64,000 bases of DNA from an uncultured Nitrososphaerota archaeon (GCA_964626365.1 CAZVDL010000003.1:23783-87782), one strand, 5' to 3'. Counted from the stretch's first letter, positions 31,819 through 49,700 are shown. Program-made: numbers and translations. Notes: generated by a model not told the origin, from the letters alone.

Positions 31819-31896
31819 GAGTACTTGCTTAGCCAGTTTAGAGCCACCTCAGCAGGCTGGTGGAGCGGTGGCTTTTAAGCTTCACGTAGAAGAAGG

Positions 31897-32699: not shown

Positions 32700-32705
32700 C
32701 CCTCA

Positions 32706-33533: not shown

Positions 33534-33565
33534 CGCTAAGGAAGGTTTTAGGCGCCGGGAGCCTC

Positions 33566-33967: not shown

Positions 33968-33978
33968 CTCGCATCACC

Positions 33979-34470: not shown

Positions 34471-34483
34471 GACCCTAACACCT

Positions 34484-34939
34484 CTACTTAGGCTTCCTGG
34501 CGACGCCCACGGTCTGGCCTGTACGCCCGGTGGTCCTAGTACGCTGCCCTCTGACCTTCAACCCCCAAGCGTGCCTTAGGCCCTTCCAGCACTTAATCTT
34601 CTTCATCAAGTCTATGTCGCTCTTAACGGCAAACTCCCAGTCACCGCCTATTAAATGCAAGTCGTTGCCTGTTTGAGGGTCCCTCTGCCTATTAACCGCC
34701 CAGTTGGGGATGCCGTGTTTAAGCGGGTCGCTTAAGATCTCCTCGATCCTCTTCACCTGGTGGTCGGTGAGGTAGCCTACCCTGAGGTTAGGGTCTATCC
34801 CAGCAACGTTGAGCAACATTCTAGCAAAGTTTAAGCCTACCCCCTTAATGACTGCTAGGCCGTGCACCACCTTCATAGTGCCGTCTACATCCGTGCCGGC
34901 TATCCTAACAATATGTCTAAATTCTCCCGGCGTCGACAT
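34484..34939 (-). CDS. rps13: 30S ribosomal protein S13
   Basis: [14 protein letters not shown]...[11 protein letters not shown]. Confidence 0.85.
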
Positions 34940-35082
34940 TTCCCCTAACCTTGCTATTGAGCAGGGCGAGGGGGCGGTAATAAATCTTAGCGCTCATACC
35001 TAACAGTTAGCTTGACCCCTACGCACTGGACCTTGAAGCCTTGCGTTAAAGGTTTATCCCTCCACTGCTAGGGCTACAGTGA

Positions 35083-35182
35083 GCCGGGGTGGCCGAGTGG
35101 CCTAAGGCGCCAGCCTGGAGCTACTCGACGGAGAGCTGGTGCCCCTTAACGGGGCGCGTGGGTTCAAATCCCACCCCCGGCG
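35083..35182 (+). tRNA. tRNA-Ser(GGA) with a 13-nt canonical (37/38) intron at 35121-35133
   Basis: acceptor GCCGGGG/CCCCGGC, anticodon stem CCAGC/GCTGG, loop CUGGAG + intron + A, long variable arm GCCCCTTAACGGGGCGC, T-arm GTGGGTTCAAATCCCAC. Confidence 0.85.
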
Positions 35183-35322
35183 TAACTTAAATATAAGGCA
35201 CCTCAGGGGCCGCTCCTGGCTTCACGTCTAGTGTTTTAGGGCCTCCTTGTAGCTTGACTCGGTTAAAACTCCATAACGGGTCGAGAAAGCCAGACTTGGC
35301 CCAAGGCGCTATGGGGCACGCG

Positions 35323-36316
35323 CTAGGCCTTTCTCCTGCCTTTCCACATGGGTGGGTACGTGCCGGGCTCCATGATCACCCTCTTGGTCTTAGCCACAAG
35401 GCCCTTCTCGGCCTCTAGGATCTCCTTGGCCGACATGAGGGCCGTGGCTAAGGCTACCAACTCCCCCTTCTGGGTCATAAGCGCGACCTCTGAGCCCTTC
35501 CTCACGTCCGAGGTCAGCCTAAGCACTCCTGGAGCTGCTAGGCTAGCGCCGTGGCAGATGGCGTCTACGGCTGAGTCCCTTATTACGATCTTGGGCATGT
35601 CCTCGACTACCTTCTCCATGGGTTGGAGGGCTCTTCTCAGCCAACTTTCATCTCCCTCCTCCCTCCACAGGTCGTAGGCGTCCTTGAGGTCGTGGAGGGT
35701 TACGAGGGTCGAGTCCTCTTTGAACACTCCGCTACGCGTCCGCCTAAGCTCCCTCATATGCGCGCCCACGCCTAGTACCAGGCCTATGTCGTGGCATAGC
35801 TTACGTATGTACGTTCCAGCCTCGCAGCTAACCCTCATCAACACGAGCTTCCCCTGGACCTCGAGGACCTCGAGCTCGTGGATCCTCCTAACCCTTAACC
35901 TACGCTTAACGGAGGCTCTTAAAGGAGGCCTCTGATAGATAGGGCCTACGAACTCGGCACAGACCTCTCTGACCCTGCTCTCAGGCACAGCTGAGTGCAG
36001 CTGCATAACGCATATGTACTCCTTCGACTCCCTCGACATTAACCATAGCAGCTTCCTAGCCTTGTTTAAGGCTATAGGCAGCACGCCGGTTACCTTGGGA
36101 TGACCCCGCCCCTCAGGGCTCTAGGGTCCCTCCATGACCGGCGCGGTCCACGTTCAGTATGCGTTTAACCCACGCGGTCACCTCGTGAGACGTAGGGCCC
36201 GGCGGCTTGTCTAGGTTTATTACGCCCTTCTCCAAGAGCTCCTCGATGCTCCGCTCCTCAGGCCTACAGCCGTAGGGCGAAGGCTCCTCCTCGCTCTTCA
36301 CTAGGTACTCAGCCAA
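35323..36316 (-). CDS. cbf5: tRNA/rRNA pseudouridine synthase Cbf5 (box H/ACA RNP), split by a 19-nt mRNA intron
   Basis: Exon 1 (36316..36116) ends ...[10 protein letters not shown] (TruB catalytic motif) followed by a TGA. Exon 2 (36096..35323) continues [17 protein letters not shown]... in another frame and carries the PUA domain. The intervening tgaggggcggggtcatccc (36097-36115) removes the stop and frameshift. Confidence 0.85.
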
Positions 36317-36371
36317 GGGCTACCCCTCAAAGAGGGCGTACACGTACCTGATAAAGTTTAACTCCTCAGGG

Positions 36372-36665
36372 CTACTCCAGCACCGGCTTAATTCGCTCCT
36401 TCATAAACTCGATCTTCCCGGCCTCCTCTAAGGCCTTCCTCACCTCGTCGTCGGAGGCTCCCTTAGGTATATTGATCGCGTCCTCGAGGGGTATCAGGTG
36501 CTTGATATTCGCTCTCCTACGCTTAACTCCGCTTACGTCCTTAGGCCCCGTCACTAGGACAAAGTTCTCGTCTATCAAGTCTACGACCACACACTTAAGC
36601 CCAGCCTCTCTGCCAGTGGTTTTAACGCAGATACGCCCCACCTGTATTGAGGGCATAAGCGTCAC
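36372..36665 (-). CDS. rpl14e: 50S ribosomal protein L14e
   Basis: KOW-containing 97-aa protein: [36 protein letters not shown]. Confidence 0.8.
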
Positions 36666-36695
36666 CTAACAGCCTACCTCACCCTAAAGGAGAGC

Positions 36696-37304
36696 TTATA
36701 AACTTGTTGATTCTAGCCCGAGCGCCTGTTTAAGTAGCTTGATCACGGTCTCAGCCACCACCTCCTTGCTCCACAAGGCCGTGTTGATCACCAGGTCGAA
36801 GACAGATAGGTCGGATATGTCTATGCCGTATATTTCGCGGTAGCGCCTCCTATTGCTCTCCTCCCGCTCCTTGATCTGCCTTAAGGCTTCCTCGTAGCTT
36901 ACACCATCCCTGCTAGCTACCCTTTCAGCCCTAACCTCTATGGGCGCAGTGAAGAAGATCTTGACGTCGGCCACCCTCCTCAGCAGCCAGCCAGCAAGGT
37001 GCCCGTCCACCACGACCCCTCCCTTTAAGGCCTCTGAGAAGGCCCTTTCATCGACTAGTAGGTCGAAGCTTGGGTCCTCCTCAGCCAGCCTGTGGAAATC
37101 TATCAGCGACAGCCCTCGCTCCTTAGCCAGCGACCTGAAGAGGCCTCCTATCGACACGTATCTGAGGCCTAGCTCCTCAGCTATCCTCTTAGCGTAGGTG
37201 GTCTTACCCGACCCAGGCTCCCCGCTTATAGCTATTGTGAACCTCTTCGAGCCTACTGGCCTATGAGAGCCCTCTGAATCCCCAGCCTTAAACACGTTGG
37301 GCAT
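36696..37304 (-). CDS. cmk: cytidylate kinase (archaeal type)
   Basis: P-loop [34 protein letters not shown]. Confidence 0.8.
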
Positions 37305-37522
37305 AAGTAGCCTCCATAGGGCCTGTTAGGCCTACGAGAGCTTTTAGGTAGCTTCCTTAGTTCATGCGGCAGCAGCCTGGGCACGCCTCCAAGAGGGGCG
37401 CCACAGTTAGCGCACTTAGCGATGCCGGGCTTCTCCCGCTTATAGTGGATAACGGTGTCGCCTCCTGGGAGCCTGACGGCGACCCTCTTCTTCGACCTCG
37501 TCCTTAAGCCGGGGCGGGGCAT
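37253..37522 (-). CDS. rpl34e: 50S ribosomal protein L34e
   Basis: [14 protein letters not shown]...C4 zinc ribbon CANCGAPL...CPTC. Confidence 0.8.
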
Positions 37523-37535
37523 AGGTCAGCCTCCC

Positions 37536-38033
37536 TTAATCGCTAGAGGCGTACGAGAGCCCTAGTAGCCGCTGGAATATAGGCACTACGCCTCCGCTCG
37601 CTATGAAGTACCACCAGATAAACTCTAAGCTCCTACCTAGCAGAGGGAAGTAGACGACGGGGCCCTCGAAGACCCTCCACAGGATGATGAAGATTATCCA
37701 GAAGGGTATGAGGTAGATCAACATGGGCTTAAGGGACTTAGCAGTCATCTCGGCCTGAAGCTTGTTTATGTAGGCCTGCTTCTTCATGAGCTTCGCCATG
37801 GCTTTATGGTCCTTCTTCATCTTAGCCCTAAAGAACTCCCTCCTCCACTCAGCTATCTCCTTATATTGCTCAGCGAGCTCCTCCACGTTCACCATAGCCC
37901 TCTGGATGCCAAAGTGCACCAACGTTATGGCCACGCACACGAGCACCACAGTCACCCCTGACAGCGGAGGTTGAGCCCAGGCTCCAAGGGCCTGCCTTAT
38001 CCACATGCTGACCTCTGATAGAAACTCGAACAA
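37536..38033 (-). CDS. DUF106 family membrane protein (archaeal Oxa1/YidC/EMC3-like insertase)
   Basis: 3-TM protein with a coiled-coil loop; conserved position next to secY. Confidence 0.55.
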   Translation of the reverse strand: MFEFLSEVSMWIRQALGAWAQPPLSGVTVVLVCVAITLVHFGIQRAMVNVEELAEQYKEIAEWRREFFRAKMKKDHKAMAKLMKKQAYINKLQAEMTAKSLKPMLIYLIPFWIIFIILWRVFEGPVVYFPLLGRSLEFIWWYFIASGGVVPIFQRLLGLSYASSD

Positions 38034-38090
38034 TGAGGGTCCCTAGAATGGGCTTAGCCCTCCCCGTCTAAAAGTTTATCGAGCTGCCGC

Positions 38091-39512
38091 TCACTTGCCC
38101 AGGATCCTCTCGAGCACCGGGTACATTTCGACGGCCTGCTCCCTAGCTATTATCTCGTAGTACTGGTACAATATCTCGACGGTGAGCAATATACCCATGC
38201 CCGTGCCTATGGCCCCTAGGAGGTCGGCGAAGGCGGCCAGCAGTCCTATGAAGAGGCCGCTCAGTATCGTCAGGGCAGAGATGTAGCGCTTCAGCAGCCT
38301 CTCCAAGATCTTAGGCGACTGCCTAAAGCCAGGCACCTGTAGACCTGCCTTAACCAGCTGCTCCGCCTGGTCGCGGGCTGACATACCTGAGGACTCAACC
38401 CACGCCACAGCGAAGAACACGCATAGAATACATAGCAGCGCGGTGTACACCAGGACGTGTACTAGGCCAGCGGGGGTTTGAAGCGAGGCTAAACCTCTAG
38501 GCGGAGACAAGTAGTATACTAGGCCGCCGATGGGCACAGGACCCCGCTCAGTCATGTTAAACATGCCCAGGGCGTTGAGTATAGGGTTCGTGTTAGTGGG
38601 GTTGAAGCGCGACCACAACATCTGGCTTATTATCTGGAGGTTCGCGTACAGCGCCCCCGCCAAGATGACGGGTATGACCGAGACGTATAGGAACTTGAAG
38701 GGCACGTTAGCCCTTATCCCCCCGTACCTAGCGTAGGACACCGGGACCTCGACTCTCATCGACTCGAAGTACAGCACTATTAGGAGGACCGCTATCATAG
38801 CTATGAAGCCGGTCATGTCGGGGAGGGGGTAGCGGTTAAAGCTGCTCAGCACGTCGCCCCTAAACAACGAGTGGAAGAAGGCTAGAATGGCGCCCACCGG
38901 CTCGCCTCCACGCTCAGGCACAGGGACCGGAGAGAATAGGCCCCAGAACACTTGCTGAGACACGCCGGCCGCGATAAACAAGCTGACGCCGCTGCCCAAG
39001 CCCCAGCCAGCCTGGATCATCTCGTCCAGCAGGATGATCAATACGCCGGCCGCGAAGAGCTGAGTGAACACGGCCAGCGCGTTGCCCAGGCTCAGCGGGC
39101 CGAAGAAACCGGCCAAGATGAAGGCGGCGGCCTCCAAGGCCGTCACCACTATGGCTAGCAGCTTCTGAGCCCCCGTAAACAGGGCTCTCTCATAGGGGTC
39201 TGAGAGGTCGACCTCTAGTATCTTGGAGCCCATCAAAATCTGCATTATTAAGCCGGCGGTCACGATGGGGCCTATGCCCAACTGCATAAGAGTGCCGTTC
39301 CTAGCCGCAAATATAATGTTGAAGAACACGAACTCCGCCAGCCTACCCCTCTCAGCTATGCCGAAGAGGGGCACCTGGCACATAATGAAGTAGATGGTCA
39401 GGACCACACCGGTCCAGAAAAGCTTACCTCTAAAGCTAACCCTACGCTTAGGCCTCTTAACGCCAGGCAGGAAGCGAATTACCGGTTCAAAAACCTCCAG
39501 GGCCCTAGCCAT
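38091..39512 (-). CDS. secY: preprotein translocase subunit SecY
   Basis: 473 aa with 10 TM segments; GIGPIVTAGLIMQIL plug/TM2 signature. Confidence 0.9.
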   Translation of the reverse strand: MARALEVFEPVIRFLPGVKRPKRRVSFRGKLFWTGVVLTIYFIMCQVPLFGIAERGRLAEFVFFNIIFAARNGTLMQLGIGPIVTAGLIMQILMGSKILEVDLSDPYERALFTGAQKLLAIVVTALEAAAFILAGFFGPLSLGNALAVFTQLFAAGVLIILLDEMIQAGWGLGSGVSLFIAAGVSQQVFWGLFSPVPVPERGGEPVGAILAFFHSLFRGDVLSSFNRYPLPDMTGFIAMIAVLLIVLYFESMRVEVPVSYARYGGIRANVPFKFLYVSVIPVILAGALYANLQIISQMLWSRFNPTNTNPILNALGMFNMTERGPVPIGGLVYYLSPPRGLASLQTPAGLVHVLVYTALLCILCVFFAVAWVESSGMSARDQAEQLVKAGLQVPGFRQSPKILERLLKRYISALTILSGLFIGLLAAFADLLGAIGTGMGILLTVEILYQYYEIIAREQAVEMYPVLERILGK

Positions 39513-39522
39513 CCCTCACCGC

Positions 39523-39975
39523 CTATTGAGGCCTAACCACCTGTCCTCCCGCAGCAGTGATCTTCTCGACGGCCCTCTCAGTGAAGGACTCAGCGACGAC
39601 GACCATAGGCCTCGAAAGCCTACCTCCACCCAGCACTTTATTGAAGCCCAGCTTAAAGCCATCTATGACGGGGAGCCCATCCTTAAACTCGAGCCTACCC
39701 TCCTTAGCCAGCCTATCAGCTATATCCTCGAGCTCGCCCACGTTAACCTCAACGTACTTCCTAACTACCTCGGGAGGCCTATGGAAGCCGTGCTTACCGA
39801 AGTAGTCCCTGGCATACTTCAAGACCCACGTCCACTTATGCTTATGCATCCCCGCGTGGCCCTTACCGCCCTTACGCCCACTACCCCTATGCTGAGCCAC
39901 CCTACCCCAGCCACAGCTACGAGTACCCCTATACTTCCTAGACGCCTTCTTACGCCGAGGTATATAGAGCCCCAT
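39523..39975 (-). CDS. rpl15: 50S ribosomal protein L15
   Basis: RGSGRKGGKGHAGMHKHKW motif of uL15. Confidence 0.85.
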   Translation of the reverse strand: MGLYIPRRKKASRKYRGTRSCGWGRVAQHRGSGRKGGKGHAGMHKHKWTWVLKYARDYFGKHGFHRPPEVVRKYVEVNVGELEDIADRLAKEGRLEFKDGLPVIDGFKLGFNKVLGGGRLSRPMVVVAESFTERAVEKITAAGGQVVRPQ

Positions 39976-40015
39976 TTAGTCCCCCTAGCCTGTTGAGAAG
40001 GGAGGGTAAAGAAGG

Positions 40016-40591
40016 TTACTCCACCACTATCCTAGTACCCCTCTCCTTACCCTTCTCCTCCTTCTCCAGCTTAACCTCCAAGACGCCGTTCCTGTAGGTA
40101 GCCTTAGCCGTGTCAGGCTTAACCCTAGCAGGAAGCTTAACCTCCTTGTAGTATTTACGCTGCTCCGTGTCCACTGAGATTATCAGCTCGTCCTCCGAGG
40201 CGTTAAGCTTAATGTCCTCCTTATTAACCCCCGGCAGCTCAGCGTACACCTTAATGTAATCCCCCTCATCCATCACGTCAACCAGAGGCTCGGTCTCCTC
40301 CTGGATAATAGGCCCCCTCGGAGTAGGCCTAACATTACCAAACTCCCTCACCACAGGCTTACCGTCAGGACCAATAGTAACGCTGAAACCATAAACAAAA
40401 GGCCCCTGCTCCTTACCGCCAGGCACCTTAGCAAAGCTACGCTCAAAAATCCTCTCCATCATCTCCTCCATACGCTCAAACTCCCTCTCCAACTCATCAA
40501 AAATATCAAACCACCAACGCCTACGCCTACGACTACCACGCCACTCATCAAACATCCCAGACACCAAAAAACAAAAACCCACGTTTTTCAT
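40016..40591 (-). CDS. hsp20: small heat-shock protein (Hsp20/alpha-crystallin)
   Basis: alpha-crystallin domain VDVMDEGDYIKVYAELPGVNKEDIKLNASEDELIISVD...KATYRNGVLEVKL. Confidence 0.8.
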   Translation of the reverse strand: MKNVGFCFLVSGMFDEWRGSRRRRRWWFDIFDELEREFERMEEMMERIFERSFAKVPGGKEQGPFVYGFSVTIGPDGKPVVREFGNVRPTPRGPIIQEETEPLVDVMDEGDYIKVYAELPGVNKEDIKLNASEDELIISVDTEQRKYYKEVKLPARVKPDTAKATYRNGVLEVKLEKEEKGKERGTRIVVE

Positions 40592-40648
40592 AAACCTACC
40601 GCACCGTCAAGTAAACTTTTTATCGCAGAAACATGGAAAAAGTTGACG

Positions 40649-40738
40649 GCGGCCGTCGTCTAGCCTGGTCTAGGACCCTAGCCTCCCGACCAGCAGGGGA
40701 GCCAGCTAGTGGCCCGGGTTCAAATCCCGGCGGCCGCA
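40649..40738 (+). tRNA. tRNA-Gly(CCC) with a 15-nt canonical BHB intron at 40689-40703
   Basis: acceptor GCGGCCG/CGGCCGC, D-stem GTCT/GGAC, anticodon stem CTAGC/GCTAG, loop CUCCCG + intron + A; central helix CTCC/GGAG with bulges CG^A and CC^A; T-arm CCGGGTTCAAATCCCGG. Confidence 0.7.
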
Positions 40739-40789
40739 TCACTATTTTATAAGCATACTTCTCATGGCCAGCGGGGTTTTTAAAGCTAA

Positions 40790-41071
40790 TTGAGTAGAGG
40801 AGGTAGGAGGTCTATGGGAAGGCGATTTAGTGATCAAGAGTTGAAGGACATAATAGATATGCTCTTTAAACACTTCAATAAGCCATGGATCCTTGAGAGC
40901 GAGTTTAAGCCTTACCTTCAAGCTAAAGGGTTTACTGAAGAGGAGATTGAAGAGATATGGGGACAAGCCTACGATAAAGGGCTAATCCTAATATCTAGCA
41001 CTCCTGTTAACGGTGACTATGAATTCACCATAGTTAAACCCGAAGAGGAAGAAGAGGAAATCGATCCTTGA
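40790..41071 (+). CDS. hypothetical small acidic protein (first gene of the tRNA-Gly-adjacent islet)
   Basis: Probable start MGRRFSDQELKDIID at 40814; poly-Glu C-terminus; its stop overlaps the TTG start of the next gene (ttga), suggesting translational coupling; low GC. Confidence 0.35.
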   Translation: MSRGGRRSMGRRFSDQELKDIIDMLFKHFNKPWILESEFKPYLQAKGFTEEEIEEIWGQAYDKGLILISSTPVNGDYEFTIVKPEEEEEEIDP

Positions 41072-42758
41072 GAATATATTATGCTCATCCAATAGAAACT
41101 TATCGTACAGTCCGCGAACGTAGGGAGTTAGAAATTATTAGGGAACGCTTCCCGAAGCTGAAATAGTAAATCCTTCAATTATCCGACATCCCCATGAAGA
41201 CATCGAGTTTTTCTTAAACCTAGTGAATTCATGCGATATAGTGGTTTACAGTGACTTAGGCGGATTCATTACGGCTGGTGTAGCCGTTGAAATCGAGCAC
41301 GCATTAAGCTTAGGTAAACCGGTGTATCGGTTAGATTGGCGCACTGAAGAACTTATTAAAGTTAGTGAAGTTAAGGGCCCACTAACCATTGAGGAGAGTA
41401 GAGCACTTGCTGACGCCCTGACTTACTTAGTGTTAGATGACACTGAATTAGCTTATTTCATTAGAGGTAAGTGGAAAGGTAAGTTCATGGATACCTTAGC
41501 TGCTATCATGGCTGACCCATCTATTAGGCAGCCTGATAGGATCGTTGAGCCAGTCTTGATCAACATTCTAAGCCGATTCTACCACTGGTGGCAGGAACCT
41601 AATAACGTGGCGCTAAACGTAGACATAAAAAGGCTTAAGGAAATCGTGCAAGAGAGGCTTAAAGAGCTAGGAGAGAGAAGTCTAAGAAGCTACATACTAA
41701 AAACTCTAGGCCTCCCTAAAACAAGATACGACTATTACACTTATCTGTTGAAGGAGGAAAAAGTGAAACCTGTTGAGGCTGGAACCTTAAGAAGGCTATG
41801 CGATGACCTTAAAGTACCGTACATAGAGCTTGAAAGGAGGAAAGTATTCATTAATCCTACGTTCCCCATAGACCTCAACAAGCAAGCCCTTTTCAAGGCA
41901 GCTATTCACATCGTCAACGAAGGGTACATGAGGACCAAGACTAAGAACATTGAGTACTACAATAGCGACCCAGTGTTACATCGTTATTTTAAGCGGGCAG
42001 TTGAAGAAGCTGGAGGAGCGTTTAGCGGACCTTTTAAGGCTCATAAAGTCTTAGCGTCATACGCTGATCCACTAATTGGACGGTTAATGAATGTTATCGG
42101 GGTACCCTATGGCTCTAAGTCCATAAGGCAGCCGTTTATAGATCTCAAGCTCTTGGACGATGGTACATGGAGATATTACTTCCAAACAACGTTAACCGAG
42201 GAGGGTAACTTCCATGTTGAAGTAACTGAGCAAAATAGGCTCTCCGGCCGTATAACACTTGTAAGGACCGTGGACGTAACAGATATCCTACCTAAAAGTT
42301 TCGTAAACTCACTAGATCAAGGTTTTCATAGCATTAAAAGCGTTGAAGACAGAGCTATCCAGAAACTAATAGCTCGAAGACCACCTCTGATGTTAATGGC
42401 TGAGTACATGGAGTTAAATAGGAGGCATAGACCTATAGGCCAAGTGTATCCTTGGCGTCATCCCTTCCCTGAGAGGTTGCTTAAGACTAAGGATGATAGG
42501 GTTACGGTGCAATGGAGGTTAGAGACTAGGAGGCGGGAGCTGGTGGACTTGATCCATGATCACTACGGCATGCTCCCCGGTACGTGGAAGTCCTTGGTGT
42601 TTGAGAAGCTGTATCGGTTTTATAGGGATCATAGGGGGAGGAGGTTGTCTGAGGGTGAAGTAGAGGAGCTTTATAGGATTAGGAAGGAGTATCCGTGGGA
42701 TGTGCCTCAATGGTGGGCTGAGCAGAAGCTTCGTGAGCTTTTCGGGAAGGGGTTGTAG
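41068..42758 (+). CDS. nucleoside 2-deoxyribosyltransferase-like (NDT fold) N-terminal domain fused to an uncharacterised C-terminal region of about 450 aa; interrupted by a frameshift near 41160
   Basis: TTG-started piece 41068..41166 encodes MRIYYAHPIETYRTVRERRELEIIRERFPKLK*. Frame 3 continues ...EIVNPSIIRHPHEDIEFFLNLVNSCDIVVYSDLGGFITAGVAVEIEHALSLGKPVYRL, matching the kIYlAgP ... DsGTafElGyA..GKPV pattern. The remaining roughly 450 aa have no recognisable family. About 45% GC. Confidence 0.45.
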
Positions 42759-42761
42759 GGC

Positions 42762-43065
42762 TTGTTTAGATTGTTTGTCTACGGCTCGTTGATGGATCCA
42801 GAGCTGGTTAGGAGGCTTTTAGGTAGAGACGTGAGGGCTTTGCCGGCGAGGCTTAAGGGGTACAGGAAGGTTGAGGGGGCTGAGTACCCTACGGCGGTTA
42901 GGGATGAAGGAGCCTACATAGACGGCCTGGTCTTGGAGGGCCTGTCTGAGGTGGATTTGAGGAAGCTGGATTAGTGGGAGGATGTCTCCGAGGGTGTCTA
43001 TAGGAGGGTGGAGGTGTTGGGTAGGGGAGGGTGAAAGCCTACGTGTATGTATCGTCTCAATAAGG
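42762..43065 (+). pseudogene. gamma-glutamylcyclotransferase (GGCT/AIG2-like) pseudogene
   Basis: MFRLFVYGSLMDPELV (YGSL motif) ... LRKLD then in-frame TAG, then WEDVSEGVYRRVEVLGRGG and a frameshift before VKAYVYVSSQ*. Confidence 0.5.
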
Positions 43066-43073
43066 GGTCAAGG

Positions 43074-43394
43074 TTAATCCACTCTAACCCAGTGTTTAGA
43101 TAGGTCTTTGTAGAAGGCCTTCTCTCGCTTTTCCTCGAATTCTCTAGGTGTTAGGGCTATTATGTCGAAGCCTAGGTCTTCGCGTAGCTTCATCCTTACC
43201 TTTTCAACTCTCTCTGGGTAGTTGAGGCCTTCGAACATCTCTGAGACCACTAGGATGTCGATGTCGCTCTCCAGGGTATGTACTCCCCTAGCGTAGCTCC
43301 CGAAGAGGAAGACTTCCCCGCTTAGCTCCCTCTTTAACCTTCTAAGCTCCTCTAAGACCTCGTCACGGATCTCTGATAGCCTTGGAGACCTCAT
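43074..43394 (-). CDS. minimal nucleotidyltransferase (MNT) of a HEPN/MNT module
   Basis: GSYARGVHTLESDIDILV (GS...DxD) Pol-beta-type NTase motif; 106 aa; overlaps the upstream HEPN gene by 32 nt. Confidence 0.7.
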   Translation of the reverse strand: MRSPRLSEIRDEVLEELRRLKRELSGEVFLFGSYARGVHTLESDIDILVVSEMFEGLNYPERVEKVRMKLREDLGFDIIALTPREFEEKREKAFYKDLSKHWVRVD

Positions 43395-43761
43395 TGATCA
43401 CCACCCTGGCCGCGTTGACTGCCTCCTCCGCCTGCTCTTTAGTTATCTCCTTGGAGGGGCTCTCTAAGCCTGCGTTGGGGTACCTGGCTTGGGTGTAGTA
43501 CGCTGAGAGCCTTGATAGGTCCGAGAGCCTTAAGCTTAGCTGGGCGCCCTCTTTGACCCTGCTGTAAAGCTTTACTAGGTCGTGGCCTCGAGGGTACTCA
43601 CCGTGGACGTGTAGGATTAAGGCCTTAAGGGCCTTCTCGGCCGCTTGTTGAGCTGCGAAACAGGCCCAGTTATAGTCGCCTATCCTTATGCTGGCTTCGC
43701 CGTGTTTAAGGTCGGCTTTAGCCTCCTCTACCCAGCTTAAGACCTCCTCCCGTACGGGCAT
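43363..43761 (-). CDS. HEPN-domain protein of a HEPN/MNT module
   Basis: FAAQQAAEKALKALIL...HDLVKL...YYTQARYPNAG matches the pfam05168-type HEPN signature. Confidence 0.7.
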   Translation of the reverse strand: MPVREEVLSWVEEAKADLKHGEASIRIGDYNWACFAAQQAAEKALKALILHVHGEYPRGHDLVKLYSRVKEGAQLSLRLSDLSRLSAYYTQARYPNAGLESPSKEITKEQAEEAVNAARVVINEVSKAIRDP

Positions 43762-43848
43762 GCCGTAATCATAGGCGCCGGCGTCCTTACAAAGCTAGCG
43801 GCCAAAGCCTTAGAGGGTACTTCGTAGCTAGGCTTGGGGCCTATATCC

Positions 43849-45117
43849 TTACTCCTTGGCCAGCTTGGCGATGTAGAAGCCCGCTGTGTTGTGTAGGTGT
43901 GGGTATAGCCGCTGGGCTTTCCTGCCGGGCGTGGTGGCTATGCCTATGAAGGGGCGTTGATCTACGGGCTCTAGCCCCTGTTTACAGGCCTCCTCGACTA
44001 CGTGCTCACATTCATCCCTCGTAAAGGTGCAGGCCGAGTAAATGATGAGGGAGCCTCTGGGAGCCGCTTCAGCGGCGGCCTTTATCAGGGCTCTTTGAAG
44101 CCCGATGAACTCCTCTAGCCTCTCCTTATTCACCCATAGCTTGACCTCAGGCTCATAGCATAGCCTGCCTAGGTTGCTGCATGGAGGATCAACTAGTAGG
44201 ACCGTGGGCTTCCTTAGGCTTAGGGGGCTTAGGCGGGAGTCGCATAGGACGGTGTCGACGTTTACCTTAACTCTCCTGGCTAGCGTGCGTATTAAGGCGC
44301 ACCTGGGTGGGGAGACCTCGCACGCTACGCTGTAGTCCTCTAGCTGCGCCAGATGGGTGACCTTCCCTCCGGGGCCGCCTGTGAGGTCTACGTGGAGTGC
44401 GCCTTTAGCGACGGCTACGTGTCCTACTAGGGCGCTGGCCTTATCCTGAACGTGGTAGAGGCCGGCTTTATACTCGGGGGTCGCGGTTAAACTACCTTTA
44501 ACCTGCTTGACGAGCAACACGTCGTGTAGGTCTGAGTCGGCTTTAAGCTTGAAGCCCCTCTTAGAGAGCCTCTTAGCTAATTCCTCCCTCGAAGTGAGGT
44601 GGGTTGATACCCTAAGCCACCTGGCTGGGTCTCTTTGAAGCCTCTTAAGTAGGGCTTCAAGCTTAGGGGCTCCTGCCTTCATTAAGGCCTCCAATATCCA
44701 CATAGGCGTGGAGTACTTGATCGAGAGACGCTCGAGCCCCGTGAGATCGGCATATGCGTCCTCCACCTCCAGCCTCCCTAGAAGCTTTAAAGCCTTGGAG
44801 TCTATCCTCGAGAGCTTGGCTACCTCGCTTAAACGCGGGTCGCTAGGTGAACACCTCTTAAACTTGAGGAGGTAGACTAACACCCTAGCTGAGCATAGCC
44901 TCTCGAGAGGCAGCCCCTCGACGTTTAACCCAGCTAGCTTGAGGAGCCTATCTAGGAGGAGGTAGTTTCTTAGAGCACCCAGGGCAACCTCCTTAACCTC
45001 CGCCCTAAAGCCTGACGGAGCACCCCCATAGAGCTTGAAGGCGAGGCTCCTTAAGCTCACCTTCTCCTTAAGCGCCCTAACCGTCAGCTTAGCCGCGGCC
45101 ACCCAGGGCGACAACAT
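43849..45117 (-). CDS. NOL1/NOP2/Sun-family RNA (cytosine-C5)-methyltransferase
   Basis: SAM fold with LLVDPPCSNLG (motif IV) and IIYSACTFTRDE (motif VI, catalytic Cys); 422 aa. Confidence 0.7.
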   Translation of the reverse strand: MLSPWVAAAKLTVRALKEKVSLRSLAFKLYGGAPSGFRAEVKEVALGALRNYLLLDRLLKLAGLNVEGLPLERLCSARVLVYLLKFKRCSPSDPRLSEVAKLSRIDSKALKLLGRLEVEDAYADLTGLERLSIKYSTPMWILEALMKAGAPKLEALLKRLQRDPARWLRVSTHLTSREELAKRLSKRGFKLKADSDLHDVLLVKQVKGSLTATPEYKAGLYHVQDKASALVGHVAVAKGALHVDLTGGPGGKVTHLAQLEDYSVACEVSPPRCALIRTLARRVKVNVDTVLCDSRLSPLSLRKPTVLLVDPPCSNLGRLCYEPEVKLWVNKERLEEFIGLQRALIKAAAEAAPRGSLIIYSACTFTRDECEHVVEEACKQGLEPVDQRPFIGIATTPGRKAQRLYPHLHNTAGFYIAKLAKE

Positions 45118-45143
45118 AAGCCCGAGCTCCTAGACAAGGAGAA

Positions 45144-45232
45144 TGGGCCGGCCCGGACTCGAACCGGGGACCCGCCGCGCGTCAGGCGGCGTTCAGGCTG
45201 CTTAGTATCCTAGCCAACTAGACGACCGGCCC
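45144..45232 (-). tRNA. tRNA-Val(GAC) with a putative 16-nt non-canonical intron near the D-stem/anticodon-stem junction
   Basis: The reverse complement has acceptor GGGCCGG/CCGGCCC, a perfect anticodon arm GCCGC-CTGACGC-GCGGC and T-arm CCCGGTTCGAGTCCGGG. An extra ...TACTAAGCAGCCTGAA... segment separates the D-arm from the anticodon stem. Confidence 0.55.
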
Positions 45233-45351
45233 TCTACCATGAAAGGAGAGGGGCGCTGATAAAAAACTAACTCCGGCCCGCTGTATCGCTGGATCCCCAA
45301 CACGCAATGCATATATCCACGTGGAGGGACTGTACGTATGGAGGTTTAGGT

Positions 45352-46107
45352 ATGCCCGTAGAGAGGGTTGAGACCGGGATTCCCGGGATGGACGAGATTT
45401 TGAGGGGGGGCCTGCCTAGACGTAACGTGGTGCTATTGTCTGGTGGCCCCGGCACCGGTAAGTCGATTTTCGGTCAACAGTTCCTGTACAACGGGTTGCT
45501 TAAGGGCGAGTCGGGGGTCTTCGTGGCCTTAGAGGAGCACCCTGTGCAGGTTAGGATACTCATGTCCCAGTTTGGGTGGGATGTTAGGGAGTTTGAGGCT
45601 AGGGGTAAGTTCGCCATAGTCGACGCCTTCACGGCGGGTATAGGTGAGGCTGCTCGAAGGGAGCGGTACGTGGTTAGGTCTGTTGACGACTTCCCGGCCT
45701 TAATAGACACGCTGAGGGCGGCGGTAAAGGAGGTAGCTGCTGAGAGGGTGGTTGTAGACTCTGTGACCACGCTCTACATAACGAAGCCGGCCATGGCCAG
45801 GGGGATGGTCATGCAGCTTAAGAGGGTCCTCTCAGGCCTCGGCTGCACCTCGCTCTTAATTTCGCAGGTTAGCGTGACTGAGCGCGGCTTCGGAGGACCG
45901 GGGGTGGAGCACGCAGCTGACGGCATCATTAGGCTAGACTTGGACGAGATCGACGGTAAGCTTTACAGGAGCCTAATAGTGTGGAAGATGAGGGGGACCG
46001 CCCACTCCATGGCTAGGCACCCCTTCGAGATAACCGACAAGGGGATAGTGGTCTACCCCAATAAGTCGTTGTCAGTTACTAGGAGGAGGTTTGAGGAAAA
46101 TGAGTGA
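45352..46107 (+). CDS. single-domain KaiC-like RecA-superfamily ATPase
   Basis: [36 protein letters not shown] Walker A, followed by KaiC-type motifs; ORF-track start at 45307 is probably an over-extension. Confidence 0.7.
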
Positions 46108-46561
46108 GGAAATACCCCTATCACCTGTTGGGAGAGAGGAGATCCATAAGCTTGAGGCAGCGCTGCTTGTAGGCACGCTTTTTAGGCCTGAGGTCCTACA
46201 GGCGCTCAAAGACCCCTCTGAGCGCTTAACTTGGGTCGATTCGCTAGCTGTGGCGGCGGCGGCCTTAGCCAGGTCGAAGGCCGGCATGAGCGTGAGCGCC
46301 ATAGCTGAGGAGCTGGGTAGGACTGAGGCCACCATTAGGGGGCACTTGACCGGTAAAACTAAGGCTGGCCAGCTAGTCCAACAGACCTACGAGCGCTTCG
46401 TGAGAGAGGGGGTCAAGATAGAGGTTACCCCCGTAGCCGCCGAGGAGACAAAGGTTAGAGAGGAGCTGGAGGAGGAGCGAAGGAAACGTGAGGAGGCTGA
46501 GCGTAAGCTTCAAGAGCTATTAAAGGAGCTTGAAGGGCTGATAAACAGGTTCAAGCCTTAA
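46100..46561 (+). CDS. hypothetical HTH/coiled-coil protein co-transcribed with the KaiC-like ATPase
   Basis: Overlaps the KaiC stop by 8 nt; [22 protein letters not shown] looks like an HTH; C-terminal charged coiled coil. Confidence 0.3.
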
Positions 46562-46780
46562 AACCGCTAACCTTTATCTTAAGCCTCCACGTAACGGCAA
46601 GGCAAGGGATATCTTTAAGTGGCCGGTGCTCCTTCTTTTGAGGCTTAACCATAGCCTGCCGAGTTTAACGCCCTCCATGGAGAGAGCGTCCTGGCGAAGC
46701 TAGGTGTTTTAGACAGTTATTAGAAATAGAGGAAGGCTTATTAGGACAGGAGGGTCGATAACCGAGCGGACAAGGTAGCA

Positions 46781-49700
46781 TTGGATGAAGCGACCATGAA
46801 GGCTATATTCAAGCAGGCTTGCCCCAACTGTAAAGGGGATATAGGCGACGATAGGCTGCTTGCCGGCCTACCCTGCCATCGATGCCTAGACGACAAGACA
46901 GCCTCTGAGATTTTAAGGAGGGCTGAAAGGGGAGAGGACCTTAAGAGGCTGGTGATTAAGGCCCTCGAGGACAGCGGCAGGCTAAAACACTACGTTGAGG
47001 CCGCCACCCCTCACCTTAAAGTCGAGGAGTTCAACGAGTTCTTTAAGAGGGCTGTAGGCTACCCTCTATGGAGCGCCCAGCGAACTTGGGCCAAGCGCAT
47101 CTTAACGGGGAGGAGCTTCGCCGTAGTAGCCCCCACAGGGGTGGGAAAGACTCTCTTCGGCCTAGCTATGTCAGCCTATCTCGCCTCTAAAGGCAAGAGA
47201 TGCTACATAGTCTCGCCGACCACGCTGCTAGTGGAGCAGGCTAGGAAGAGGCTCGAAGAGATCATTAAGACCTCGGGGCTCAATATAAGGTTGGCGTACT
47301 ACTCAGCGGCCCTACATAAAGCCGATAAGGAGGAACAGGTTAGGAGGATTAAGGAGAAGGACTTCGACGTCCTGATCACCACGTCGAGCTTCCTAGCCAG
47401 GAAGTTTAACTTGCTTAAGAAGTGTAGGTTCGACTTCATATTCGTAGACGACGTCGACGCCATACTCAAGGCCTCCAAGAACATAGACAGAGTGCTGGTG
47501 CTCTTAGGCCTAAGCGACGAGATCGTAGAGAAGACCCTGGAGCTGATCAAGCTTAGGAGAGAGGTGGCTAGGGCTGCTAGACATAGGGAACCTAACCTCG
47601 AGGAGTTGAGGACAAAGGCTGAGGAGCTAAGCAAAGAAGTAGAGAAGGCTGTTAAGAGGCGTAAACTGGGGCTGCTAGTAGTCTCAACCGCGACTGGTAG
47701 GGCTAGAGGCACGAGGGTTAAGCTGTTCAGGGAGCTACTGGGCTTCGAGGTGGGGTCAAGAGCTGAGGCCATAAGGAATATCCAGGACCTATACGCTAAG
47801 CCTAGAGGCGACCTGGACGACGAAGTCGTAGACCTGGTCTCGAAGCTTGGAGGAGGCGGGCTCGTCTTCGTACCGCTCGATAGAGGCGTCGAAGTAGCTG
47901 AGAGAGTCACCCAGAAGTTAAAGGAGAGGGGAGTTAAGGCTGAGCTCGTCTACGCCAAGGGAAGGAAGGAGGAGATCGCAGCGTTCGCTGAAGGCGAGAT
48001 AAGCGTCCTCGTAGGGATGGCGAGCTACTACGGCCTGCTAGTAAGGGGCCTAGACTTACCGGAGACCGTGCGCTACGCTGTGTTCGCCGGAGTACCTAAG
48101 ATGCGCTTCACCCTAGACTTAAAGGAGGCCTACCCGTCGAGGATTCTACAGCTCCTCGTCGACGTGAAGGACGCGCTAAGTGGAGACGAGCAGACCAAGG
48201 CTCTGAGGCTCATCGGCAGGATGAGGAGGCTCCTATGGAGGCTGACCCCAGCTGCCTTCGAGGAGCTTAGGAAGGCCCTCGACTCAGGCGTTGAACCCCC
48301 CAGCTGGCTAAGGCAGGCCTATTACACGGTTAAGGAGGCAGCCGAGTTCGTCTTCCAGGTCCTCTCAAGGGAGGAGGTTAAGGCGAAGCTGAGGGAGTCC
48401 TCGTACCTCTCCTTCACTGAGGAGGAGGGCAAAGTAGTGGTGACAGTCCCAGACGTGCCCACATACATACAGGCCTCGGGCAGGACATCCAGGCTCTACG
48501 CTGGAGGGGTATCCAAGGGGGTATCAGTCGTCTTCGTCGACGACGAGAGGGTCTTCAACGGCCTAGTGAGGCAGACAAGGTGGCTGGCGGAGGAGGTTAA
48601 GTGGGCTAGCATCGACGAGGTCGACCTAGGGGCCTTGATGAAGGAGGTGGACGAGGATAGAGAGCGCATAAGGAGGCTGCTCAGAGGCGAGGTTAGGGCT
48701 GAGGGCTTCGAGCCGGTTAAGTCCGTGCTCCTCATAGTCGAGTCGCCCACCAAGGCCAAGACCATAGCCAGCTTCTTCGGCAAGCCGTCGAGGAGGAGGA
48801 TAGGCGAGATCACAGCCTACGAAGTGGGCACCGGCAAGTACATACTGAACGTGGTGGCCACGGGAGGACACGTCTACGACCTGGTCACCAAGGGAGGATA
48901 CTATGGAGTCAGAATAGAGGACGGGCGCTTCATACCGGTCTACGCCACCATTAAGCGTTGCTTAGCCTGCGGAGACCAGTTCGTGGACCAAGGACACTGC
49001 CCGCTATGCGGCAGCAAGGAGTTTAGGGACTCGCTTGAAACCATAGAGGCTCTAAGGGACTTAGCGAGCGAGTTCGACTTAACCTACGTCGGCACGGACC
49101 CAGACACTGAGGGCGAGAAGATAAGCTGGGACGTCACTTGTTCGCTTAAGCCCTACTCCAACGTGCTGAAGAGGGTCGAGTTCCACGAGGTGACTAGGCC
49201 CGCCCTACTAAGGGCCTTAGAGGAGCTGAGAGGCATAAACGAAGGGCTGGTGGAGGCTAACATCGTTAGGAGGGTCGAGGATCGCTGGATAGGCTTCGAG
49301 CTAAGCAGAAGGTTATGGAAGGTCTTCGGGAGCAGACACCTATCAGCTGGTAGAGTGCAGACCCCCGTCCTAGGCTGGATCATTAAGAGGTTTGAGGAGT
49401 TCAAGAATAGCCGAAAGCTGGTCTACAACGTGCAGCTCGACATAGATTACAGGGTGACGCTTGACGACGTGCCCCGAGAAATACCCCAGGAGGAGGTTGT
49501 TCGTAAGCTTAGCGAGGCCACATGTAAGGTCGTGGAGTTTGAGGAAGTAGAGGAGGAGGTATCGCCACCTCCACCCTTCACCACCGACGCCCTCCTCAAG
49601 GAGGCTTCAGCCAGGCTTAGGCTGGGCGCGGCAGAGACCATGTCCATAGCCCAGGACCTCTTCGAGCTGGGCTTAATAACGTACCATAGAACAGACAACA

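Follow-up and report, generated by a model that had tools for sequence, protein, structure and literature searches.

What kind of DNA follows the tRNA-Gly gene in the 64,000-nt stretch of an uncultured Nitrososphaerota archaeon that was analysed here (the window), and does it act as a unit? A preliminary description made from the sequence had proposed a partly decaying mobile or defence islet of about 3 kb. The intron-containing tRNA-Gly directly upstream is borne out by ARAGORN, by Rfam (RF00005, 49.8 bits) and by our reading of the sequence, which places the gene at 40649-40738 (plus strand, as all features below unless stated otherwise) with the anticodon CCC and, behind position 37, an intron of ~15 nt. 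We take the 3' end of this gene as the left edge of the cassette described below and as the side that is presumably targeted; the last 26 nt of the gene (CCCGGGTTCAAATCCCGGCGGCCGCA) are common to every cassette-bearing tRNA-Gly. The following spacer (40739-40813) contains the tRNA trailer TCACTATTTTAT, a TATA-like box (GGGGTTTTTAAAG, 40773-40785), which may serve as promoter, and a purine-rich SD-like tract (40798-40812); trailer and TTTTTAAGG box have the same position in the related loci L012 and L030 and in both copies of L027. From about 40800 to 42400 the GC content drops to 0.41-0.44 compared with 0.52-0.58 in the flanks and climbs again to 0.51 over the final 360 nt of the large gene, in good agreement with the low-GC region that had been described through about 42500. 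No other 1945-nt stretch of the whole window has a GC content as low as that of the cassette (0.436 versus a mean of 0.523 +/- 0.027), which, together with the tRNA linkage at other loci, supports the interpretation as acquired or mobile DNA. The host itself is an uncultured heat-loving archaeon.

The first gene of the cassette (40814-41071) encodes an 85-aa winged-helix (wHTH) protein with a disordered poly-Glu tail, and its TGA overlaps the TTG start (41068) of the large gene, just as had been read before. Both genes are an obligatory pair: a small wHTH homologue lies beside the large gene at every locus with enough sequence, with two to three paralogues at some, and this conserved co-occurrence supports the earlier idea of a functional pair. 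The large gene (41068-42758) codes, after repair of a frameshift, for a 563-aa protein with an NDT-like domain, an HTH region, a predicted double LAGLIDADG core and a helical C-domain (AF2 model with a pLDDT of 83.9). In the window it is split over two frames, as one C is missing from a CCCC run at 41151 (TCCC at 41150-41153 versus TCCCC in L001-L003 in a base-by-base comparison) and the first frame ends with a TAG at 41164-41166. Joining the frames gives a product with 100% identity to P0001, the version found intact in these three other assemblies, each 99.9% identical to the window. The 1-nt deletion can be a mutation that inactivates the gene or an error at the homopolymer, so that this copy of the large gene is inactive or mis-sequenced. 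Intact copies are under strong purifying selection in all domains (dN/dS ~0.08).

Downstream of the large gene follow ordinary neighbours that lie outside the cassette. The broken GGCT gene that had been noticed is confirmed as a GGCT/AIG2-like pseudogene (42762 to approximately 43062), which contains an in-frame TAG and a frameshift and matches Pfam GGACT at 7e-16 once repaired; the same truncated 70-aa ORF occurs in L001-L003. GGCT follows the large gene only in the window and its closest relative L015 and is missing everywhere else, also from the syntenic locus in the related Methanomethylicia MAG. On the minus strand, a minimal nucleotidyltransferase (MNT; 43074-43394; Pfam NTP_transf_2, PF01909, 1.5e-13; GSYARG...SDIDILV motif), the antitoxin-type partner of HEPN, and a HEPN-domain protein (43363-43761; PF05168, 6.2e-33) overlap by 32 nt, so that the proposed pair holds with high significance for both domains. 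This pair (43074-43761) is an ordinary member of the HEPN-MNT (type VII) toxin-antitoxin systems and is not linked to the cassette elsewhere, being absent from every other cassette locus examined. The 3-kb stretch thus does not hold together as a single islet, since only the succession of tRNA 3' end, small gene and large gene (~40739-42758) recurs together.

The N-terminal domain of the large protein (aa 1 to ~105; 41068-41381) is predicted to adopt the flavodoxin/Rossmann-like fold of the nucleoside 2-deoxyribosyltransferases (NDT). Y4, D57 and E75 align with NDT active-site positions, and E75, which occupies the nucleophile position of the G-x3-E...A...GKP block, does not vary among 26 N-domains and falls on the Glu of 'DAGVASEIG' in 7m5h. 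This supports the NDT fold with a catalytic-Glu block that had been suggested for the N-terminus. In common with the superfamily of NDT, DNPH1 and MilB-BcmB N-glycosidases (including DUF4406), the domain retains Tyr, Asp and the nucleophile Glu at their positions, and there are hundreds of stand-alone relatives of 125-140 aa. It differs in that it scores under the Pfam threshold (12.5 bits against the PF05014 clan with a cut-off of 28.8, and 23.7 bits for the best relative P0068), in having Thr or Ser in place of the Asp that stands two residues ahead of the Gly in the Glu block, and in its fusion to a presumed DNA-binding nuclease scaffold. Full-text literature searches for a precedent of such a fusion found none, and we know of no earlier case.

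An invariant YHWWQEP motif leads into a helix-turn-helix region (aa ~170-264; 41575-41858), which is delineated by invariant columns and by helices 187-257 of the model, and whose equivalent in the relative P0033 matches Pfam HTH_3. The adjoining core (aa ~265-425; 41859-42341) is of the double LAGLIDADG type: in the model, two alpha-beta-beta-alpha-beta-beta-alpha half-domains pack through motif helices that end with ...IHIVNEG (E285) and ...TLTEEG (E379), each helix closing C-terminally with an acidic residue and a Gly. An alignment of 21 sequences with 24-66% identity shows no variation at N284, G286, E378, E379 and G380 and at least 90% conservation of E285. The predicted structure and the position of the motifs together suggest that the core belongs to the LAGLIDADG proteins. 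At the sequence level, neither Pfam (including LAGLIDADG_1/2/3) nor NCBIfam or PHROG matched the C-module, and an hhalign comparison with the LAGLIDADG_2 region of P0142 yielded a probability of 0.3% and no sequence signal; P0142, a precedent for the architecture, combines the same N-domain with HTH_psq and a bona fide Pfam LAGLIDADG_2 (1.3e-26). The C-terminal helical/beta-hairpin domain (aa ~426-563; 42342-42758) contains an invariant E446 and a GTWK motif, and its profile found no sequence match in the PDB. The statement that about 450 aa lack a recognisable family therefore stands with respect to sequence families but not with respect to the fold, which is seen as HTH, double LAGLIDADG and helical C-domain. 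That the family is undescribed is supported as well, since no Pfam, NCBIfam, PHROG or PADLOC model exists for the C-module.

The two-gene cassette is conserved in a few archaeal lineages, namely Methanomethylicia, Nezhaarchaeales and Geothermarchaeum, and adjoins the 3' end of a tRNA-Gly or tRNA-Glu at 8 of 12 assessable loci, with a chance expectation of ~1-2% per locus by our own estimate for a genome with one tRNA per 30-40 kb. The tRNA genes concerned are tRNA-Gly(CCC) in the window and L012, tRNA-Gly(GCC) in L010, L030 and L027-left, tRNA-Gly(UCC) in L027-right, tRNA-Glu(CUC) in L006/L007/L008, where it overlaps the last 22 nt of the ORF, and tRNA-Glu(UUC) in L011, about 65 nt after the stop. 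Within each tRNA class the cassette orientation is constant. No tRNA lies within reach at L005/L025, L013/L028 (downstream side not covered), L014/L026/L033 and L020/L022. Relatives without the NDT domain have an upstream ArcTGT-like/phosphoesterase gene instead (ArcTGT match with E 1.3e-5).

Besides this linkage, several observations bear on mobility. The MAG S9B5_HD70 carries four cassette copies, and one 6-kb contig bears two. The cassettes of L030 and L027-right are 93% identical at the nucleotide level, compared with 69% for the orthologous chromosomal flanks, and the homology starts at the tRNA; they sit at different genes in two genomes, tRNA-Gly(UCC) in one and tRNA-Gly(GCC) in the other. 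Judged from these sequences, the cassette appears to have been transferred recently between different tRNA-Gly genes. Paralogues within one genome are old (58-67% aa identity, dS saturated), and decayed copies comprise the frameshifted one in the window, a fragmented and truncated one in L012/L019 and another frameshifted one in L014. At the same tRNA-Gly(CCC), a related genome holds not the same gene set in synteny and with normal composition but an inverted, fragmented and low-GC cassette, so that the refuting outcome named in the preliminary description did not occur. The right-hand boundary is defined only by the loss of homology at the stop codon, and neither an empty/occupied allele pair nor a cleavage site was identified among the cassette loci. 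The att-like repeat that had been proposed as a search target is lacking as well: no direct repeat of the tRNA 3' end (attL/attR) occurs in 40600-45300, and there is no integrase among the ORFs of 40740-45300 or the neighbouring genes of related loci.

With slightly better than even confidence, we favour the explanation that the cassette is a self-contained, free-standing homing-type mobile element of ~2.0 kb (~40739-42758), aimed at the flanks of tRNA genes. The combination of HTH and double-LAGLIDADG fold points to such a self-mobilising element rather than to a defence islet. According to this model, the core would be an active site-specific DNA endonuclease, of a class that makes double-strand cuts in targets of 14-40 bp and leaves 4-nt 3' overhangs. 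Its target would take in the trailer and, within tRNA-Gly (and tRNA-Glu) genes, the conserved 3' end with T-arm and acceptor, and it would cut unoccupied alleles. Repair from an occupied copy, with the tRNA sequence as left-hand homology, would then copy the cassette in by free-standing 'intronless' homing, comparable to phage T4 SegB beside tRNA genes. The wHTH protein may act as accessory DNA-binding factor or autoregulator, possibly as inhibitor through its poly-Glu tail. The NDT-like domain could contribute N-glycosidic chemistry or nucleotide binding at the target, a role suggested by its exchange for an ArcTGT-like/metallophosphoesterase partner in relatives. The strong purifying selection, which extends over all domains, is equally compatible with an active selfish element and with a function that benefits the host. 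The conserved NDT-like or TGT-like plus phosphoesterase partner and the obligatory wHTH protein, which no homing endonuclease is known to need, hint at a more complex function. A more speculative proposal, to which we give low probability, is a LAGLIDADG scaffold that delivers N-glycosyl-transfer chemistry to tRNA-gene DNA, which would make the cassette, with the ArcTGT-like/phosphoesterase operon as its sister, a new class of site-specific element or system. Base excision or exchange would then proceed by way of a glycosyl group bound covalently to the enzyme, the kind of intermediate used by NDT and TGT, and could either mark or immunise the host's own target site or start the break that drives insertion.

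How well do other explanations account for these data? The one with the most in its favour, although still unlikely, is a defence or conflict system, in which the NDT-like or ArcTGT-like plus metallophosphoesterase module would sense or process foreign, perhaps base-modified, nucleic acid or nucleotides, with the LAGLIDADG nuclease as effector and the wHTH protein as regulator or immunity factor; the tRNA linkage would then reflect guarding of tRNA att sites used by integrating viruses or plasmids, or island-style clustering. A swappable enzymatic partner with a constant core of nuclease and wHTH protein is typical of modular conflict systems, the two to three paralogous small genes at some loci resemble immunity arrays, and the HEPN/MNT, HicA and PIN toxin genes among the neighbours, the strong purifying selection, the variable genomic contexts and the occasional pseudogenisation are also compatible with defence. 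However, PADLOC-DB v2 has no match for the large protein (P0001, P0008 and P0009) and weak matches alone for the small one (E 0.004-0.01), and LAGLIDADG enzymes, which recognise long, rare sites, would make poor general restriction effectors. Precise, orientation-specific placement at tRNA 3' ends and the replacement of one cassette by another at the same site are properties of site-specific mobile elements, unlike defence-island cargo; moreover, housekeeping genes surround most loci. With no PADLOC match for the large protein and a fold that points to a homing-type element, the defence part of the preliminary description finds no support.

The same low dN/dS and the position next to tRNA genes that it could serve would also suit a domesticated LAGLIDADG protein, not a nuclease but a sequence-specific DNA or RNA binder that brings the glycosyl-transfer domain to tRNA genes or transcripts as a tRNA-Gly/Glu-directed regulator or modification/repair enzyme. 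LAGLIDADG scaffolds serve as binding modules in WhiA and intron maturases, the partners here are related to tRNA-acting or base-exchange enzymes (ArcTGT and NDT), and RNA repair enzymes have end-healing domains similar to the metallophosphoesterase partner. Nevertheless, we regard domestication as quite unlikely: both LAGLIDADG acidic residues, which WhiA has lost, are conserved or invariant, the recent lateral move between tRNA-Gly loci and the deviant GC argue against it, and the presence in few lineages in 0 to at least 4, often broken, copies is unlike a housekeeping tRNA factor. Least probable of all appears a passive cargo of a decayed, integrase-mediated virus or plasmid, for which the tRNA linkage would say nothing about the cassette's own activity. 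The window has neither integrase, integrase fragment nor att direct repeat and none is evident at other loci, no viral or plasmid copy was found, nor any relative among 2.9 million viral contigs, and it is the cassette, not an integrase, that lies within 55-160 nt of the tRNA at eight loci in fixed orientation; within contig reach, the unit common to L027 and L030 consists of tRNA end and cassette only. What speaks for cargo is that archaeal integrative elements typically integrate at tRNA 3' ends, besides the low GC, the pseudogene and toxin-antitoxin pair next door in the window and the unknown ORFs between operon and tRNA in L036.

Under the favoured homing-type reading, the closest known systems are the single-chain archaeal LAGLIDADG enzymes I-DmoI, I-Tsp061I and I-Vdi141I and the intein enzymes PI-PfuI and TliVMA. 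Shared with them are motif helices ending in an acidic residue plus Gly (NEG / EEG), hosts among the thermophilic archaea, and signs both of mobility and of a cycle of gain and decay. In contrast to these, the cassette protein is outside Pfam LAGLIDADG_1/2/3 at the sequence level, is larger (~560 aa) owing to the NDT-like domain, HTH region and 140-aa C-domain, and is always accompanied by the small wHTH gene. Its ORF is free-standing between tRNA and next gene with its own promoter-like box, beside tRNA genes and not inside a target gene, rRNA intron or intein. Seg and Mob enzymes are of the GIY-YIG or HNH and not the LAGLIDADG type, and T4 SegB and mobE-type genes are phage genes without NDT/TGT or wHTH partner, unlike the archaeal chromosomal cassette genes; common to both is a free-standing, in our case predicted, endonuclease gene in an intergenic position next to conserved (tRNA) genes. 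The phage genes spread by cutting alleles that lack them, with co-conversion of the flanks; SegB and the T-even phage tRNA region are the subject of PMC13096335, and mobE homing is that of PMC2790892. Such intronless homing would explain the fixed orientation and the tRNA-bounded homology of the cassette. The bacterial transcription factor WhiA, a degenerate LAGLIDADG protein with HTH, likewise shares the double LAGLIDADG fold and extra helical DNA-binding domains. In WhiA, a conserved regulator present in single copy, the catalytic acidic residues are gone, whereas the cassette family keeps these residues and is patchy and multi-copy with signs of mobility; a WhiA-like loss is contradicted by the conservation of E285 and E379 described above for 21 members.

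Full-text literature searches found no paper on the C-module family, and to our knowledge the architecture of NDT-like domain, HTH and double LAGLIDADG, always with a winged-helix partner, has no earlier example. For the window, the annotation changes from a 3-kb islet to one 2-kb mobile cassette with ordinary neighbours. The enzymes would be thermostable with long recognition sites and thus of possible interest for genome engineers, and the association of one nuclease core with an NDT-like or ArcTGT-like enzyme hints at site-specific DNA recognition linked to base exchange or excision. Should the glycosyl-transfer proposal hold, the cassette would provide the first case of glycosidic and phosphodiester chemistry coupled in a homing-type element or restriction-like system, and with it a thermostable meganuclease that naturally carries a base-editing-type domain. 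For the uncultured Thermoproteota-type archaea, the cassette would add free-standing homing-type endonuclease genes, whose repeated placement at tRNA-Gly/Glu 3' ends would represent an integrase-free targeting of tRNA genes and is relevant to the long-standing proposal that tRNA introns, like split tRNA genes, guard against invaders.

The region is bordered upstream by the minus-strand genes for SecY, ribosomal protein L15 and HSP20, and on its 3' side by those for an RsmB-type methyltransferase, a tRNA-Leu, a KaiC-like ATPase and reverse gyrase. The flanks of the region are collinear with a contig of the related 'Candidatus Methanomethylicia archaeon S9B5_HD70' at 73-75% nucleotide identity. 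All features of the preliminary description (tRNA, low GC content, small ORF, large gene, GGCT and MNT/HEPN) were found in the window. The tRNA-Gly gene (40649-40738), whose anticodon CCC and intron of ~15 nt were both read from the sequence, is followed by a small ORF of 85 aa (40814-41071) that encodes a winged-helix (wHTH) protein and whose stop overlaps the TTG start of the large gene (41068-42758, in two frames in the window). The low GC content was also confirmed, with values of 0.41-0.44 from ~40800 to 42400, and no other 2-kb stretch of the window has a GC content as low as that of the two-gene cassette (0.436 vs 0.523 +/- 0.027). The final ~360 nt of the large gene (42399-42758) have a GC content of 0.51 compared to 0.42 in the remaining cassette, which suggests either a mosaic or partly ameliorated end or an intragenic recombination junction.

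Originally, the stretch 40740-43800 had been taken as one decaying islet of 3 kb. A single island of this extent can be ruled out, as GGCT, HEPN, MNT and RsmB are missing both from the syntenic locus of S9B5_HD70 and from the other cassette loci, with the exception of the closest relative (L015), which carries GGCT only. Since GGCT and HEPN/MNT (42762-43761) do not accompany the cassette elsewhere, apart from GGCT in L015, and have a near-average GC content of 0.53-0.54, the 3-kb stretch is to be read as a 2-kb mobile cassette together with its neighbours. The GGCT gene contains an in-frame TAG and a frameshift and represents a real pseudogene, because the truncated form is common to the window and the other three assemblies of this locus (L001-L003). 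We regard it as an ordinary pseudogene and the overlapping MNT and HEPN genes as an ordinary toxin-antitoxin pair.

Joining the two frames of the large gene yields a 563-aa product that is 100% identical to the database protein P0001, which is intact in the three independent metagenome assemblies L001-L003, all 99.9% identical to the window and with the same gene order. The sole indel is one C at 41151, which is absent in the window from a CCCC run (41150-41153) and reflects either a strain-specific knockout of the large gene or a homopolymer error. A programmed frameshift at this position is ruled out by the single continuous ORF in these three assemblies and in all homologues. Position 1 of L002 (contig NODE_240 of ERZ584659) corresponds to window 40669, 20 nt inside the tRNA-Gly gene, and L003 begins within the small gene and stops at the tRNA-Leu; these contig breaks may mean that the population is structurally polymorphic at the tRNA, by inversion or by presence/absence.

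About 450 aa of the large protein had been described as lacking a recognisable family. This holds at the level of sequence families, as Pfam (queried with the single protein and with all nine members), NCBIfam, PHROGs, PADLOC and PDB profiles gave no significant match, and hhalign detected no signal between the LAGLIDADG core and the Pfam-validated LAGLIDADG_2 region of P0142, a 439-aa protein from a Nitrososphaerota MAG (L032, 6001-7466). The fold assignment of this part therefore rests on structure prediction. However, a LAGLIDADG fold is recognisable in an AlphaFold2 model built on nine full-length homologues (mean pLDDT 83.9), which matches I-Tsp061I and an I-DmoI/I-CreI chimera (both 11.9), PI-PfuI (11.3) and WhiA (11.1), as well as I-LtrI, I-MsoI, I-Vdi141I and I-CreI. 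Structural matches of the model also include the nucleoside 2-deoxyribosyltransferase (NDT) class, among them 1f8x and MilB, with TIR/ThsB domains slightly lower, and the LAGLIDADG and NDT classes were again returned by Foldseek. The predicted LAGLIDADG-equivalent helices comprise aa 273-285 (...AAIHIVNEG) and aa 365-379 (...QTTLTEEG), each immediately followed by a beta-hairpin in the model. In an alignment of 21 members with identities down to 24%, N284, G286, E378, E379 and G380 are invariant and E285 is conserved in at least 90%. Therefore, both LAGLIDADG metal-ligand positions are retained in the large protein, in contrast to WhiA, which has lost them.

The NDT-type N-terminus proposed earlier gives a sub-threshold match in sequence searches and is borne out by the structural matches to NDTs and by E75. 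This residue is invariant in 26 sequences and corresponds in the alignment to the Glu in the active-site block of the NDT 7m5h (DAGVASEIG...KGIPV vs TAGVAVEIE...LGKPV); Y4 and D57 of the N-domain likewise align with 7m5h. In the NDT family, the Glu of this block acts as the nucleophile. The N-domain and the LAGLIDADG core are separated by the invariant motif YHWWQEP and an HTH region; behind the core comes a helical C-domain of 140 aa, in which a GTWK motif is invariant. P0142, in which the same NDT-like N-domain is followed by HTH_psq and by a LAGLIDADG_2 domain that is significant in Pfam (1.3e-26), is an independent precedent for this architecture.

Wherever a locus offers enough sequence, the large gene is adjoined by a homologue of the small protein, and therefore the conserved unit is the gene pair. 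The small gene is located upstream of the large gene and overlaps it in Methanomethylicia/Nezhaarchaeales-type loci, and it is found downstream in Geothermarchaeum-type loci. In the latter, a DUF763 gene precedes the cassette and a C5 DNA methyltransferase gene is present 1-3.5 kb downstream (L014 12740-13723; L033 11181-12113). At several loci, two or three small-gene paralogues surround one large gene (L007 4671-5296, L008 291-916, L005 11718-12539, L033 7711-8280), in an arrangement reminiscent of orphan immunity or regulator arrays. The wHTH protein itself may regulate its own expression, contribute specificity or, via its poly-Glu tail, act as an inhibitor.

Among 5.8 billion proteins, full-length homologues of the large protein form nine clusters, all from archaeal MAGs, and a profile search against 1.84 billion representatives yielded ~1,400 relatives and revealed that the N-domain and the part after it (C-module) also occur separately. 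Stand-alone N-domains are found in hundreds of proteins of 125-140 aa with weak Pfam matches (DUF4406 / Nuc_deoxyrib_tr), which share YYAHP...NP...TAGV..E..AL..GKPVY (examples P0081-P0157), and the C-module occurs alone (400-480 aa) or joined to other N-termini. Four NDT-less, C-module-only loci contain a three-gene operon consisting of a 520-600-aa protein, the C-module and a small wHTH protein (L035 373-3629; L036 3351-6722; L038 3183-6765; L039 3431-6523). The N-domain of the first protein is related to archaeosine tRNA-guanine transglycosylase (ArcTGT), with a weak profile alignment to 1iq8 over ~300 positions (E 1.3e-5) that includes a CxCxxC...HN zinc motif, and its C-terminal part is a YfcE/SbcD-type metallophosphoesterase. 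Thus, the core of putative nuclease and wHTH protein pairs with either an NDT-like or a TGT-like enzyme, both of which are N-glycosyl-transfer folds. Judging from sequence divergence, intact copies of the large gene are under strong purifying selection, with a dN of 0.146 and a dS of ~1.9 (ratio ~0.08) between L001, from the lineage of the window, and L015, and similar ratios in the N-domain and the LAGLIDADG core.

Using ARAGORN, Rfam and direct reading, we found the 3' end of a tRNA gene facing the cassette at short range in 8 of the 12 assessable loci; by chance, we estimate such a linkage at 1-2% per locus, assuming about one tRNA per 30-40 kb. The tRNA-Gly(CCC) lies 75 nt before the small gene in the window and at 89 nt in L012/L019, tRNA-Gly(GCC) at 160 nt in L010/L004/L016, ~65 nt in L030 and ~55 nt in the left cassette of L027, and tRNA-Gly(UCC) at ~65 nt in the right cassette of L027. 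A tRNA-Glu(CUC) overlaps the final 22 nt of the large ORF in L006/L007/L008, so that the part of the ORF encoding its C-terminal ...GAPAGI runs antisense to the end of the tRNA, and an intron-containing tRNA-Glu(UUC) is found ~65 nt past the stop in L011/L017. Each class keeps to one orientation: tRNA-Gly, small gene, large gene in the one, and small gene, large gene, tRNA-Glu on the opposite strand in the other. In the remaining four groups (L005/L025, L013/L028, L014/L026/L033 and L020/L022), no tRNA was found nearby. S9B5_HD70 has four cassette copies; a cassette follows two of its three tRNA-Gly isoacceptor genes, and the third gene is located 785 nt beyond a tRNA-Glu-linked copy. On the Nezhaarchaeales-type contigs L006 and L007, HSP20 is followed by an intron-containing tRNA-Gly(CCC) as in the window, with the site unoccupied (L006 802-912, L007 769-875). 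Their cassettes lie ~7 kb and ~4 kb further on, respectively, beside tRNA-Glu(CUC), with SLOG (LDcluster4), epimerase and glycosyltransferase genes in between.

The link to tRNA genes recurs in the sister families: an intron-containing tRNA gene begins 48 nt past the stop of the P0142 gene, and in one TGT-type operon a tRNA lies ~300 nt beyond the small gene. P0179-type relatives (NDT-like domain, HTH and unknown C-terminus) have neither an adjacent tRNA nor a small partner; therefore, the tRNA link does not come with the NDT-like domain by itself. The P0142 gene faces the 5' end of its tRNA and is also without a small wHTH partner.

Our data also allow insights into the movement of the cassette. 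The 6-kb contig L027 carries two divergent cassettes after tRNA-Gly(GCC) (1-700, minus strand) and tRNA-Gly(UCC) (4564-6075, plus strand), and the first ~38 nt 3' of each tRNA (TCACTTTTCATTTATGCGTTTTTAAG.GGTTTATT) are nearly identical despite the divergent downstream genes; this stretch could represent a conserved end of the element, a promoter or half of a target site. L030 has a chromosomal flank and a tRNA-Gly(GCC) that are orthologous to the GCC locus of L027 with only 69% identity, whereas its cassette is 93% nucleotide-identical to the L027 cassette at tRNA-Gly(UCC), in a homology that starts at the tRNA and spans spacer, small gene and large gene to the contig end. Therefore, one cassette lineage has recently moved between different tRNA-Gly genes and genomes with its orientation kept, and at the orthologous tRNA-Gly(GCC) site one cassette has apparently been replaced by another. 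In comparison with L012, the syntenic contig of S9B5_HD70, the block of tRNA-Gly(CCC) and cassette is inverted relative to its flanks (window 40645-42205 vs L012 9558-11153; flanks window 31435-40554 and 45299-50446 vs L012 in reverse). The L012 copy is fragmented, 3'-truncated and adjoins HSP20, and the L014 copy is frameshifted.

Homology among cassette loci stops at the stop codon of the large gene, and sequence comparison places the probable mobile unit of ~2.0 kb at 40739-42758. The att-like direct repeats of the tRNA 3' end envisaged in the preliminary description did not emerge from 40600-45300, which contains short chance repeats only, and this argues against integrase-type integration. 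Displaced half-sites and terminal repeats were looked for by comparing the trailers of unoccupied tRNA-Gly genes with the right-hand junctions at occupied loci, and nothing convincing appeared. A viral origin was set aside, as no relative was found in IMG/VR contigs.

Since neither an integrase nor an att repeat is present and no viral relative was found in IMG/VR, the LAGLIDADG protein is the only plausible mobilising activity, and free-standing homing is the best-supported model for the cassette. The protein would recognise the conserved 3' part of tRNA-Gly/Glu genes together with the adjoining trailer and cut cassette-free alleles, and recombinational repair off an occupied copy would carry the cassette across. 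Jumps between isoacceptor genes would be allowed by the 26-nt tRNA 3' end common to all tRNA-Gly genes. The nuclease activity, target and homing pathway that we infer for the large protein have an analogue in the free-standing endonucleases, such as T4 SegB, that phages carry next to tRNA genes (PMC13096335 and PMC2790892).

A swappable enzymatic partner, arrays of small paralogues and strong selection would also fit a modular defence system, but we consider this unlikely, as the large protein is without a PADLOC match and the cassette behaves as a site-specific element. Somewhat more doubtful still is a domesticated factor that binds or modifies tRNA genes or tRNA, as the catalytic residues are conserved and the cassette is patchily distributed, multi-copy and laterally transferred. 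That the cassette is passive cargo of a decayed integrase element is the least probable of these explanations: neither an integrase nor an att repeat is present, and it is the cassette itself that stands in fixed juxtaposition to the tRNAs.

No relevant paper emerged from full-text searches for LAGLIDADG together with deoxyribosyltransferase, transglycosylase or Methanomethylicia. A LAGLIDADG homing-type gene is a known kind of element; what appears to be new is the sequence family, the fusion to an NDT-like domain combined with an obligatory winged-helix partner, the use of a TGT-like partner as an alternative, and the targeting of tRNA gene flanks in archaea without an integrase. The role of the NDT-like domain, as well as that of the TGT-like/phosphoesterase partner, is not accounted for by any known homing endonuclease, and the NDT-like domain might conceivably excise or exchange bases at the target, render the target site immune or sense nucleotides.
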